Source: Octopus vulgaris
Lineage: Eukaryota
NCBI GenBank assembly: GCA_951406725.2
Contig: OX597828.1
Coordinates: 63,922,001-63,986,000 of the forward strand
Length of the DNA stretch: 64,000 nucleotides
Direction of reading: 5' to 3'
Below are positions 1-9,200 of this stretch, piece after piece (position 1 is the stretch's first letter; each line of letters begins with the position of its first letter). A program made the position numbers and the translations under genes. Under the pieces are notes generated by a model, which was not told the DNA's origin, made no database searches, and saw only the letters and a list, made by a program, of their open reading frames with translations.

Positions 1-207
1 ACCTATGTGGTGGTTTAATAAAGTATGTGATTGAGTATTATCTGGTAATTGATATTTGATTTAGATGTATTTCTCCATTTTCTTTTGTTGTATATATATA
101 TATATATATATATATATATATATATATATATATATATATATGTATATGTAAAGGGAAAGAAAGAGAGTGAGATAGTGATTAAGAGAGATAGGAAGAAAGA
201 GACTCAC

Positions 208-219
208 CAGGTCGAGGAG
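208..219 (-). CDS. Candidate 12-nt microexon CTCCTCGACCTG (phase 1: A-P-R-P)
   Basis: tcttcttcgctatatctttttcag | exon | gtgagtc. Confidence 0.6.
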
Positions 220-749
220 CTGAAAAAGATATAGCGAAGAAGATATGAAATATGTATGACATTTTCAAGTGAACTTTGAACTGGAATATGCTACATTTCT
301 TAGAATTATATTTATATAGAGGCGAGTATACATTCCGAGTTTACGTATTTCATACCAAGAGAATGAGATACGTTTTCTGATGCTATAAAGCTTTCACATA
401 CGACAGTTTGTGTGTTGGCTTTCACCAGCGAACAAGAGTTAATAAGGATCAGGTGGAACGTCCAGTAATCGCTCCAAAGTGGTTTATATGATCGATATAA
501 CTGATCGTCGATGAATTATATCATCCTCAAATCTTTCACACTCTCATTGTGGTGTTATAACGATGATCAAGGTCATGATCTTCGAATATAAGAAATCAGT
601 ATGTATTATTAATATTATTTCCTAAAGGATAACAATATCGTAATTTAACTTTTGGCTCAGAGATTAATTATACTGGAATACGTTACGGATGAGAATAATA
701 ATAATAATAATAATAATAAGCATTATTATTATGAAAATCATTATAATTG

Positions 750-3339: not shown

Positions 3340-6255
3340 AAGAGACGAAGAAAGGGAAAAGGTGAAGACAGAAGAGAACAAACGGGCGTCAAATCGCCTC
3401 AGATGGATTCTTAATGCATTGCTGTAATTGAGTATACAAAATACGTGAGTCCTAAGAGACATTATATTTCATATATATATATGTGTGTGTGTGTGTGTGT
3501 GTGTATATATATATATATATATATATATATATATATATATATATATATATAGAGAGAGAGAGAGAGAGAGAGAGAGAGAGCGAGAGAGCGTAGAGAGTGC
3601 GTGAGACGAAAGTTTGTTTTTATTATGAACACTGAAAGAGAAACAATGGACTCTGGGACATTATATATGCATATATAAATGAGTAATGTCTGCTTTTCAC
3701 CGTACATCTTCGAATCCGGCGGTAAATTGTGAATGGCCATCTCCACACAAACTAAAAACAATAGAAGCGAGTTTTCATGTCAAAATATTGAAACGATGCT
3801 TTTCTATGGATTTAATAGGATAAGATGGCTACAGAGATTGATGTTAGTTTCAGTTGAAATAAATGGCGTTCTATATAGATTAATAATTATCATCAGATAA
3901 GGAATACTAAAAGGAATGTACATATATATATTAATTATATATATATATATATATGTATATTATATATGCATTATATATATATATATATTATATGTAAGTA
4001 TTATATATATCATATATATATTATGTATGCATGTACATTATGTATATATATATCATATATATGTTATATATATATCATATATATATTATATATATCATAT
4101 ATATATTATATATATCATATATATATCATATATATTATATATATCATATATATATATCATATATATATATATATTATATCATATATATATGTATATTATA
4201 TATTATATATGTATGTTTGTATATTATATATATTATATATATATATGTATGTTATATATATATATATTATATATGTATATTATATATATGTATATATTAT
4301 ATTTATATATATATTATATAGATATATATATTATATATATATATTTTATATATATATATATATATATATATATATATTATATATATATATTATATAAAAG
4401 AGTAAAGAGTATATATATTATACATATATTATACATATATTATATATATATATATATATATATGTAAATTTGGACATAGTCACGTATGAAACGTATAAAA
4501 ACCCTGTATAAATGTGCGTATGTATGTATGTGTGTATATATATATATATTTATATATATATATGAATATATATATATATATGAATATATATGCGCGTATA
4601 TTTGCATATATGGATATATATCTTTGTGTATGTGTATATATGGCTAGATGTATGTATATATTTTTAATATGTATATATGTATTCGTTGATGGAGTAAAAA
4701 ATATCAGCATGCATGGTGGAAAGAAACACATGGAGATAAACTTGGAATATCATCTAATTCTTAGAGCTGCATTTTGAAAGATCTTTGAAGGGAAAATCAC
4801 ACACACACCTAATCAACATACGAACAAAAAAACTATCAATTCCCTTGCTAGGATATTCATACTAACAAGATTGAATCTGGTAAACATTTATCGTCTAGCA
4901 ACGATATCAGTATCCGGAGATTTATGATATCGGCAAAAAATTAGTGTAAAGATATGTCTAGACAATTATATGGCATTGATAAATATCGGTTATATCGAAT
5001 GTTGCTATTGGAACTGTTGTCGATTAGTTTCCATGTGAACCCTGAACAGGTAAGTCCAAAACTAAAGAGGTGCCAGTCAAAATCAACTTGTTTTCTTTTT
5101 GTAAGATGATCGTATTATTCAGAGACTTTTATGCCTTGAAGGCTGCATAGAGTGTTATGAAGTGCTGTGGAGATTTTCTCGCTGCATTGACTGGAAACTC
5201 TATGTAATGGGTGGGAAAAATGCGATGCAGGTTATCAGTCGACGAGACACTCGAGACACTCAACACGAAGAACTTCGCCGCTAGAATGAAACCCAAAAAC
5301 ATTGAAGGGAAGGTCCGTTCTGATGGACGTTTTCAGGGCCCGTCTGTCTGTCTATAGCTATGTATGAATGTTCATATATTTGCATACACATATATACGTG
5401 CGAGTATGTAAGTATATATATATATATATATATATATATATATATGTTTACATATATATATAAATATATATGTATATATGTGTGCATGTATGTATATAAG
5501 TATATACATACATACCTACGTGCACACACATACGCACACACACACACACGTTTGTGTGTGTGTGTGTGTGTATAGTCATACTAGTTTGAATCTGTTTCTT
5601 CTGAGATACGTTTTCTGCATTTATATAAAGATTCCATATAGCACGTTAGGTCGTTCTCAGCTATTGCAAGTAAAAACCCAGCTGGGGCATCGCATTCTGT
5701 TGAAACTTGCCCCATTCATTACTACCATATACTTTCTATGAAGGATAAAAGGATTTCATTGATAGTTTATGTCAAGATTCTGTATTAATTATCGCTATCT
5801 TCATCCATCATCATCAACATCATCATAACATGCCAGAAATCAACATTTATTGTTAATAATATTTCTGAAAGAAAACTGCTATTCCGTTACACAACCTAAA
5901 CTATTTCGGGTTAGAAATTATACTGAAATATATTAAGGAAGATAATAATAATAATAATAATAATAATAATAATAATAATAATAATAATAATAATAATAAT
6001 AATAATAACCATAGTTAAAATTTAAAAAATGTTTTAAAAAATATCAAGAAATACTGGAGTTATGACTATTCTAAACGGGCCATTTCCTTTGAACAATGCA
6101 ATCGAATGCAAAAAAGAAGGAGCGAAAAAGCAATACGGAGATTTGCAATCCGAAAGAGAAGTAGAAGGAACGATCCATAAAAAATTGGTAAACGAAGAAT
6201 AAATGAATGAAAATTCTGGAAGCAATGCATGTATATATAGATATATTTGACTTAC

Positions 6256-6267
6256 CAGGCCGAGACT
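6256..6267 (-). CDS. Candidate 12-nt microexon AGTCTCGGCCTG (phase 1: E-S-R-P)
   Basis: ttttcttcgctatatctcttgcag | exon | gtaagtc; paralogous flanks at 208 and 2776. Confidence 0.6.
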
Positions 6268-9200
6268 CTGCAAGAGATATAGCGAAGAAAATATGAAACA
6301 TGTACGATGTTGTTCAAGAATGCTGTGAATGGAAACTGGCTTTCTTTCCATTCCGATTCATATGTTTTTTGCCTAGAAAAAAATCATGCCATATACTTTT
6401 GGAAAATCGTCTCAAACGATGAATTCTGGACGCATTTCAGCAGTTAAACATACTAAATGCATAAGGTGAATCCTATCTGAGAGACAGCATTTTTCTCATA
6501 TATATATATATATATATATATATATATATATATATATATATATATATATATATATATATATATATATATATATATATATATATATATGTGTGTGTGTGTG
6601 TGTGTGTTTCTTTGGAAAATAATTTGCAAGTAGTTCCTGGGTTTTAGTGAATTCCTACACCTGTCAACCTGTCGGAAAAAAGAAGATTGTTTCTTTTTAA
6701 AATGCAAACGGTTTTGCTAGTTGACGGGTATAGACAAGTATATAACTTATGTACAGGAACCGCTGTCATGCCACAATGGGCCATTCGCAATATATATATA
6801 TATATATATATATATATATATATATATATATATATATATATATATGCCCATACATAATTATTCTTTTGTTATACCAAAACGTAAACTTTAAAAAGTTTGC
6901 AATTCCTTTAAAGAAACCTGCCACAAAGCTAAGACTTATCTCACGATTGCACACCGAAAACCAGACAAAAACTACGGAAGCCTATCCTTTCGACCTAGTA
7001 AAGATATTTTCAACAACTCTATCCTACTGAGTGTAACCTTTTCTTTTGACCAGAGTTTTACTACAACAGCCTATCCTAGCCCTGTCACCGAGATGTTTAA
7101 AACCTGTCATAGATTGAGACGCTGGCATTGTAAAGTTTAAAACATTTGAATTTTATTTTTTTAAACGGCTTAATCAAAGAAGATATGGCAGCGCATATGA
7201 CATTCTATTCAAGAGTTGCTAGGAATATAAGCAAGTTCTTATGAGCTGAAGACTAGGTCTGAGTTCTTGCAACAGTGTGGACTCCGTTAAACGCAGCTGA
7301 TGGTTAAATGTTTGGGTTAAACCGTCTGACGTAATACATCTGTTACAGATGTAACTAATTTATTATTTGTTGTAATTGATTTATTTAGGGAAGTAGTTTA
7401 TATTTAGTAGTTTATATTTAGTAGTGATTTTTATTTCGAGTTTATTTTTACTCTAATGACATTCTTATCATCTTCGGATGCGAGTTCAAAACCCACGACT
7501 TTCATTGCTAACGAGAACAAAATATTTTCAATAAGCAACAGAAAAGCAGATTACTGTGAAGAATTTGAAAGAGAAAGAAGGAGCGAGAGAGAGAGAGAGA
7601 GAGAGAGAGAGAGAGGGGGAGAGAAGGAGAGAGGCAAAGAGAAAAGTAGAAAGAGAGAGGTGGGAGGGATTGGTATTTATGAATGTCCGTCAATGAAAGA
7701 ATGAATTTTGAGTTTACATCAAAAGATGGTTAGGGTTAATATTTATGTTCGCTTCGTTGTTTGGTTTATCGTTAGATTTAAAGGAGGACGAAATACAGAA
7801 ATTTATTTGTGATTAGATATAAATTAGACATGACAAGTTAGTATTGTTTTGCGTGGTAGACATATGATAGTTTTTGTTTAGATGTGGCATATATTTAGAT
7901 ATATTTGCTAGATGGCGCATTAATTGCATGTTTTATTGACAAAACACATTGGAATGGAGATGAGCGGGAGCGGCGGTGGCGGCGGGGACACAAATTGAAT
8001 GTTATTTTAATATGGCGCGTTTATTAATCAAATTTTATTTTATGTTGCACTTTTGTGAAAAATTAAGTCGTTGGTTTCTAGTTTCTAGTAAGCTAGTTAT
8101 TAGTTCATTGTATTTTCAATGATGACAGTGACAAGAGATTATTTGTGAAACTCAGGTGGAACAAACATCACATAAAGGAGTTTCATTCGAAAGCCCTTGT
8201 TTATTGTTTATCCTTTTTTATTTGCCGATGCCTGCATTTATCGCCGATATACATCGACAAAAAATGGACTTGTCCAAAGTAACGCGTAGAGTGAACACAC
8301 GCTACTTTGAACACGGAGGCATGTAGTTACAAAATGAACCCCTTATCGACACAACCATGTCCGCGTTTTGATATAGCAAGTAAAAATGCTATTTAGAAGT
8401 GATAAATTAAAATGTAATTGTGTTGTATGACATTAAAACGTAGTTACAACATAATTGTTATAGATCAAACTATAATATTATGCAAATTTAACTCAATGAA
8501 ATATAGTTTTATAACGCAGATTATAGTTCACAATATAATATAGATATATTGGACACAGTAGAAAATCTCTCGTACTTTGATAATGTGTCACATATGATAT
8601 AGAATATTGATCTGATTTTAGATGTAGAACGTTAGAATGTAATTTTATAAAGTCTTTTTCTAGCACATTCTAAAACAACTTAGAAGCGACACATAAAAAT
8701 TTAATTTTGATGTGGATCACTAGGATGCAACTGAAATTTAGTGCAATATGATCCAGAACTGATTTAGCCCATTTGAATAAAGTTTAATATATTTAGTTGA
8801 CTAATGAACGACATCGTCAAGACAAATTATATTTTATTACGGTTATAATGCGCTACCGTGTAAATGAAAAAAATTTTTTCTGATTTTCTTATAAATAATT
8901 CTATCTAGAGTGGTTTTCTTTGATAAATTTATACATTTACTTGTCGTGTAATGGTTACGTATTTGGTCTTGATGCAATCATGAGATGAGGTTTGTGATGA
9001 CCTTTGCTAACAAAAACTGAAAGAAAGAGAAGCAATGAAAGGAGAGATGAAACTAATGGAAGACAAAATTGGATGAATGTTATAAAAAAAAAAATGGAGA
9101 AATCACGGGATTAGCAGCCGATTTTTCAAAAGAGAGAAATGAAGGAAAAAAATCTTTAAAAAGTCTTTTAGAACTGTTGCATAATAATGTAAAAATGAAA

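Follow-up and report, generated by a model that had tools for sequence, protein, structure and literature searches.

Very short or tandemly repeated exons are known from several systems. In tandem duplicated exon substitution, of which the Dscam clusters are an example, homologous exons of the same phase lie one behind the other, arise by local duplication and provide alternatives for one position of a protein, according to the part of the source consulted (PMC9741552). The neural microexons of the eMIC/SRRM3-4 class are defined, in the sections available to us, by their size, frame preservation, long AG-exclusion zones and pyrimidine tracts, and they encode linkers near interaction surfaces (PMC8797185). 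The micro-exon genes (MEGs) of Schistosoma, as far as the preprint was consulted, contain series of very short symmetric exons with kilobase-scale introns between them (bioRxiv 2023.06.21.545858). In vertebrate filamin, hinge 2 lies between the last two immunoglobulin-like (Ig) repeats, and the excerpts consulted describe the CD face of Ig23 as a ligand site sensitive to hinge 2 (PMC2654154). Here we describe a locus of Octopus vulgaris that resembles each of these systems in part: a tandem array of five microexon cassettes, ME1 to ME5, in the hinge-2 intron of a short filamin gene. Three cassettes lie in the 64,000-nt stretch analyzed (the window, positions 63922001-63986000 of the sequence labelled G000:C15 in our coordinates, from a 2.80-Gb genome). 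As 200 kb past position 1 were added, 264 kb were scanned; coordinates outside the window are window-relative, 0 being G000:C15:63922000.

All five cassettes are on the minus strand. ME1 (12 nt, 6256..6267), which encodes the peptide ESRP, is an optional exon in the annotation of O. sinensis and O. bimaculoides. Its paralogues, all candidate exons, are ME2 (2776..2793), which measures 18 nt through a 6-nt insertion and would encode APNCRP, and three further 12-nt cassettes: ME3 (208..219, would-be peptide APRP), ME4 (-1228..-1217, L004:8772-8783, AYRI), and ME5 (-4764..-4753, L004:5236-5247, ASKA). A first-pass annotation of the window had described ME1-3, and its account of them holds: a pyrimidine tract, a CAG acceptor and a G/GTRAGTC donor accompany each of them, and a strict microexon scan of both window strands returned these three as its sole matches. 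Its list was incomplete, as the scan beyond position 1 that it recommended revealed ME4, ME5, a decayed copy and the two exons that follow the array. The decayed copy (-2969..-2961, minus strand, L004:7031-7039) was retrieved by a profile of the five intact copies at an nhmmer E value of 1.2e-5, the next match having an E value of 1.8. It has lost its acceptor AG, its donor is weakened, and its 3' part is repeated ~180 nt further on, at about -3139. The cassettes are spaced by 1424-3524 nt (1.4-3.5 kb). All five have phase 1/1 and lengths (12, 18, 12, 12, and 12 nt) that are multiples of 3; they translate without a stop both singly and all joined, and every combination is in frame. They fall within the 3-27 nt between canonical AG and GT that characterize microexons and, being homologous, adjacent and of one phase, also have the attributes of tandem duplicated exons. 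The would-be peptides are unevenly rich in proline, as AYRI for ME4 and ASKA for ME5 illustrate. ME4 and ME5 share TCGAA at a 2-base offset, by chance or perhaps through a compensated indel, ME5 having lost 2 nt and gained 2 nt and so stayed at 12. ME1 starts with AG (6266-6267), so that a second acceptor is potentially available 2 nt further on, the use of which would put the message out of frame.

The duplicated unit comprises the cassette and a block of the intron that follows its donor. This post-donor block was found in six copies, of which four follow ME1-4 and two have no cassette upstream. The block behind ME1 (6030..6245) is matched by a paralogue at about 2703-2499 and, past position 1, by those that follow ME3 and ME4; the block behind ME2 (2499..2703) was recognized at an E value of 0.0024, and the two solitary blocks are at 1093..1245 (E value 5.3e-9) and 1763..1854 (E value 0.015), all on the minus strand.

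The gene bearing the array is a short (~835 aa) mollusc-type filamin. Its product contains about nine filamin Ig repeats (PF00630), and relatives of the same ~835-aa class are present in cephalopods, bivalves, gastropods, a chiton, and an annelid. The filamin exons of the window are 90-100% identical to Octopus sinensis protein models by tblastn, the low end of this range corresponding to matches that overrun exon ends. The tandem Ig repeats end with an Ig24-like one, and the matches in the PDB are filamins A, B, and C. We take the penultimate repeat to be the counterpart of vertebrate Ig23 and the last that of Ig24. Most of the penultimate repeat is encoded by a constitutive Ig23-like exon (15217..15432, minus strand) found in the contigs of four of four sequencing runs. 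As the first-pass annotation had stated along with the phase and peptides of ME1-3, all of them correctly, its donor at 15217 is of phase 1; it opens a 31,057-nt intron, of which the in-window half extends over 1..15216 on the minus strand and the rest lies beyond position 1. The constitutive exon that follows starts at -15841 (L005:3968-4159) and encodes hinge 2 together with the first part of the last Ig repeat; the final, Ig24-like exon starts at -17242 (L005:2758), and both are on the minus strand. This one phase-1 intron, bounded by the Ig23-like and hinge-2 exons, holds the whole array.

This position bears on the origins that had been considered for the cassettes. A filamin hinge built from microexons, as the first-pass annotation had proposed, with growth by duplication of exon plus intron, is supported by the hinge-2 and Ig24-like exons beyond the array and by the presence of ME1 in the RefSeq models of two species. 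The same exons, once found, led us to reject its other two suggestions, a filamin tail and a separate gene nested in the intron. The array does resemble the Schistosoma MEGs in its symmetric short exons and long introns (bioRxiv 2023.06.21.545858, consulted in part). MEGs, as presented there, are whole genes, made up mostly of microexons, that encode secreted proteins, whereas the octopus cassettes form a five-exon module in a conserved intracellular filamin whose gene has normal exons, and ME1 is spliced into filamin in six public models. A separate micro-exon gene is thus extremely improbable, and we judge fragments of a dispersed repeat, taken together with it, no differently, as genome searches and profile scans of the 264 kb place copies only in this intron. 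A cassette-shaped pattern run over the 2.80-Gb genome matched four times, each time in this intron, and its reversed control not at all, more than chance would give; because it was built from ME1-4, this search tests dispersal and is not an independent discovery. Three DNA searches of the genome returned only the copies in this intron, with a low sensitivity near 70% identity (one query recovered itself only) at which remote diverged copies could escape. No cassette outside the intron was found by profile scans of the 264 kb, and a pattern designed to find an intact relative of the decayed copy matched nothing. A dispersed transposon, which the first-pass annotation had named among its refuting outcomes, was rejected within the sensitivity of these searches, no dispersed genomic copies having been detected.

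The use of ME1 is documented by public annotation. In a cluster of 14 octopod proteins, ESRP is present in six (three O. sinensis and three O. bimaculoides RefSeq isoforms) and skipped in seven (one O. sinensis, one O. bimaculoides, four O. vulgaris-labelled and one Argonauta model), the remaining one being an old model with a different end. ME1 is therefore already known from the RefSeq annotation of two octopus species, which backs its inclusion, and ME2-5 are candidate exons. The expectation that annotation pipelines would miss such exons was borne out for the O. vulgaris-labelled models, none of four having ME1, and contradicted by O. sinensis and O. bimaculoides, in which six of eight RefSeq models contain it. 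Our preferred reading, to which we attach a probability of about 0.55, is that the hinge-2 intron holds a tandem array of five cassettes of which ME1 is an optional exon and ME2-5 are likely minor or tissue-restricted ones, likely used one at a time, and that all would lengthen a tether predicted to keep a hinge strand on the binding face of the penultimate Ig repeat. An optional exon of ancestral molluscs would have been copied at least five times together with part of its intron; in five copies selection would have kept the splice signals and the frame while the peptide drifted, and one copy would have died.

Sequence comparison among the copies is consistent with such a history. Over the 62 nt before the acceptor, ME1-4 share 0.70-0.83 identity, against 0.50-0.58 for their post-donor blocks, in keeping with the earlier remark that the flanks have diverged heavily around intact splice sites. 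Among ME1-4, 35 of the 59 columns of the acceptor region are invariant, compared with 42 of the 171 of the post-donor block (Fisher p 2e-6), and across all five copies nine of the ten positions of the splice core are invariant, the tenth being the permitted R. The five copies have a mean identity of 0.83 over the final 30 nt before the acceptor, where the decayed copy scores 0.68 and shuffles 0.67; further upstream, in 30-nt bins, identity declines to that of shuffles by -90 to -120. All five acceptors are preceded by 52-73 nt free of AG, a zone that is down to 33 nt in the decayed copy. Of 118 pyrimidine-rich AGs in the intron, 27% have an AG-free zone of 50 nt or more, and the copies are not independent of one another. 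Within the exon bodies, the 12-nt copies have only 3-6 of their first 10 nt in common. On a neutral star tree, the chance of an intact 8-nt core is 6e-6 to 3e-3 for five of six copies and 5e-5 to 0.02 for five of eight units. That splice signals are kept far better than flanks or exon bodies suggests that selection acts on splicing and frame, not on the peptide. Selection is not proven by these figures, as the copies were first found by the same splice signals, low-complexity pyrimidine tracts align readily, block limits are approximate and the acceptors may have been homogenized by gene conversion.

If selection is visible on splice signals and not on exon bodies, ME2-5 might have been retained as splicing elements, decoy or intermediate sites for a 31-kb intron, and rarely enter the protein; the dominance of the skipped form in the aligned runs would fit. 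A decoy has no need of lengths that are all multiples of three, even after a 6-nt insertion, and the cassettes are not AG/GT recursive sites, so we regard this explanation as very unlikely. The signals themselves resemble in part those of eMIC-type microexons, a long AG-exclusion zone and a pyrimidine tract being present in five of five cassettes. They differ from that class, as portrayed in the text consulted (PMC8797185), by donors that are strong and not weak, by the apparent lack of a CUAAY-type branch point and by a UGC located mainly within the acceptor; paralogous arrays are not described in that text. In the octopus cassettes, TGC occurs at -5, within the acceptor, in four of five and at -19 in one, and a strict YTRAY branch-point motif is found in one of five, a loose YTNAY being present at -30 to -33 in all five.

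The insertion site was located on AlphaFold2 models of the protein with and without ESRP (mean pLDDT 82.0 and 82.6, respectively). It falls in a coil between strands 702-707 and 718-725, directly after the last strand of the Ig23-like repeat. The extra strand 718-725 starts ten residues past the end of this repeat and is followed by a disordered stretch; the residues E725-T726, at its end, are invariant in 34 of 34 aligned sequences. When the hinge was supplied as a separate 34-residue chain, residues 719-725 were predicted to dock along residues 652-665, in the C and D strands of the Ig23-like repeat. Autoinhibition of a CD face is known from vertebrate filamin, in which the A-strand of Ig20 lies on Ig21, and structure 2j3s is among the PDB matches. 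Strand 718-725 may similarly be a self-covering strand. As it would dock only ten residues past the repeat, an extra 4-6 residues would change the tightness or the angle with which the site is covered, together with the geometry of the dimer end. From these models we infer that the exons tune the tether of the hinge strand, hence how accessible the Ig23-like site is, or how it is oriented, in the dimer.

Compared with vertebrate filamin, the octopus protein has about nine repeats, lacks an actin-binding domain in public models and has optional exons that vary the length of its hinge. The Ig23 CD face of human filamin A binds FilGAP, and deletion of hinge 2 lowers this binding, which the authors explain by geometry in the part of the article consulted (PMC2654154).

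Optional inserts at this junction are widespread in molluscs. Among 186 proteins, 47 were set aside as fragments, as other filamins or as more distantly related, and the junction could be parsed in 139. It is free of inserts in 78 of these and occupied in the remaining 61, which between them show 22 different strings of 3-17 aa; the figures count database entries and not independent events, and the inserts are known from proteins alone. EYPA is present in three of five members of a cluster ~74% identical to the octopus protein, probably squid-like; an A(R/S)GGS insert is found in oysters and scallops, and a DETGCY-type insert in several gastropod groups (P0007, P0011, P0014, P0021, P0163, and P0183). 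Pomacea and Mytilus have two alternative inserts each, and Biomphalaria glabrata has four different ones, of 5, 5, 10, and 13 aa (P0136, P0159, P0161, and P0167). Multiple alternative inserts per species are therefore not specific to the octopus, and the junction looks like an old mollusc site of optional short exons. Among the 150 proteins listed by a HMMER search of 50% representatives, none was more than 50% identical to the query. Two side observations concern these inserts: a cysteine occurs in the gastropod DETGCY-type insert and is also encoded by ME2, and B. glabrata may have an independent microexon array at the same filamin junction.

Several results weigh against our preferred reading, beginning with the transcript evidence. 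ME2-5 peptides occur in none of the 14 octopod models, and a search of 20 candidates for short-protein fragments with other inserts gave a single match, to the skip form. Among 24 runs listed, 20 contain the Ig23-like exon, their type being guessed as RNA or unknown; in each of the four aligned, of unstated tissue, one contig joins this exon directly to the hinge exon and skips the whole array, although contigs lose rare splice forms and those covering the cassettes alone could not show in an alignment of 351 bases around the exon. (The contig of one run ends 26 letters beyond its aligned part, possibly a graph branch or variant, and was not used as evidence.) The sequence does not impose one-at-a-time use either, with its kilobase introns and in-frame combinations, and no window clearly exceeded shuffled controls as a docking site shared by the cassettes. 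The biases of the conservation statistics given above count on the same side, as does the star-tree test restricted to an intact AG and GT, which five of six copies would retain by chance with a probability of 0.005-0.09 and five of eight units with one of 0.03-0.31, highest at the lowest divergence. The hinge docking speaks for our reading with a score of 0.64 against 0.03 for the best of three controls, a contact agreement between runs of at least 81% and a partner pLDDT of at least 53, but the test has no calibration for peptides and the pass may reflect likeness to filamin-peptide complexes already solved; the threshold was passed by 51 of the 78 solved microbial pairs and 2 of the 108 mismatched ones, and among eukaryotic pairs by 71 of 105 solved and 2 of 126 mismatched. 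Finally, the docking of the octopus strand on the Ig23-like repeat is predicted only, and the human deletion data support a functional role of the hinge through geometry and not a simple blocking strand.

Part of this evidence would be explained if ME1 alone worked and ME2-5 were leftovers of local segmental duplication, silent or spliced as noise, and decaying. RefSeq caught the equally short ME1 in two species and none of the others, one of the copies has already died, two of the intron blocks stand without a cassette, and the exon peptides are not conserved among copies. Against it, flanks are near saturation (0.50-0.58), yet four further copies retain acceptor, donor, AG-free zone, and frame, and an unselected 8-nt core would rarely have survived in five of six copies, or even in five of eight units, with the chances given above. 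We consider this explanation a serious possibility of clearly lower probability than our preferred reading, that of an optional ME1 accompanied by minor or tissue-restricted ME2-5. Should ME2-5 prove silent, the locus would be one ordinary alternative microexon with unusually well-preserved duplicates.

One-at-a-time use, which our preferred reading favors, differs from strict mutual exclusion. Skipping of the whole array is common (7 of 14 models and four of four runs), which does not comply with the definition of mutually exclusive exons, exactly one of which is present in each transcript. It is also what distinguishes the array from tandem duplicated exon clusters as depicted in the part of PMC9741552 consulted, along with units of only 12-18 nt and a no-exon form that is in frame. 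Introns of 1424-3524 nt rule out steric exclusion, and the in-frame nature of all combinations excludes a frame mechanism; nor did we find a clear docking mechanism. In the docking scan, a purine-rich 40-nt window (12477-12516) paired in silico with the regions upstream of all five cassettes, slightly better than its own controls, reaching -22.3 kcal/mol for the weakest of the five, against -15.6 to -18.6 in three shuffles; with three shuffles per region, the controls of another region reached -23.8 kcal/mol.

With no steric or frame barrier, phase 1/1 and no stop in any single or joined translation, the five exons could also be included independently and in combination according to cell type, giving up to 32 hinge forms with tethers of 10 to 32 residues. 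One Biomphalaria insert has four residues in common with a shorter one and could be compound. Consecutive microexons are the commonest failure of short-read annotation. Two of the microexons together are found in none of the models or contigs examined, the assembled contigs skip all five, and the mollusc inserts look mutually alternative. The joined product ESRP-APNCRP-APRP and the combinatorial splicing proposed in the first-pass annotation are thus unsupported so far, in that no ME2-5 transcript was found, and we hold independent inclusion of the five exons to be unlikely. Doubtful to a slightly greater degree is its most elaborate version, in which an ancestral microexon would have grown into a five-unit array used combinatorially by cell type as a length dial on the tether of the self-covering strand, controlling the Ig23-like site of an actin-independent filamin through up to 32 hinge forms encoded by 66 exon bases.

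Literature searches, which covered subscription journals thinly, returned nothing on this array or on hinge microexons of mollusc filamins, and in the literature searched there was no description of a five-copy array, a dead copy, a mollusc-wide variable junction or the predicted strand docking. The word "filamin" is absent from the main text, as far as it was consulted, of a preprint on O. bimaculoides splicing (10.64898/2026.09.05.749416). Here a microexon has been multiplied by tandem duplication and its live copies lie next to a dead one, a natural experiment on microexon survival in which splice signals and frame, and apparently not the peptide, would keep the exon alive. The locus also exposes a variable position across molluscs in an under-studied short filamin, with different optional inserts in bivalves, gastropods, and cephalopods, and the predicted contact between the hinge strand and the CD face provides a concrete, testable role for filamin hinge 2.

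The 5' part of the gene was also surveyed. The N-terminal actin-binding calponin homology (CH) domain was found neither in the ~835-aa public models nor in the 264 kb, DNA having been searched up to 2.4 kb above the window. The short models may represent an internal-promoter form of a longer gene with an actin-binding domain. A mussel filamin of ~105 kDa and Drosophila FLN90, neither of which was retrieved by our literature searches, are analogues. Just above the window lies a further exon (L024, G000:C15:63986778-63986894), separated from window position 35336 by an intron of ~29 kb; the octopus models place differing first exons before it (MAKVV, MTQVR/MTEVR, or none).

The surroundings of the array contain other repeats. 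A 185-nt direct repeat with 98% identity at -5125..-5811 (L004 ~4190-4875) and a 263-nt near-perfect palindrome at -8223..-8485 each look like a recent local event or an assembly feature. In the same intron, the region L005 ~4550-5330 resembles, by eye, a fragment of a decayed non-LTR retrotransposon.

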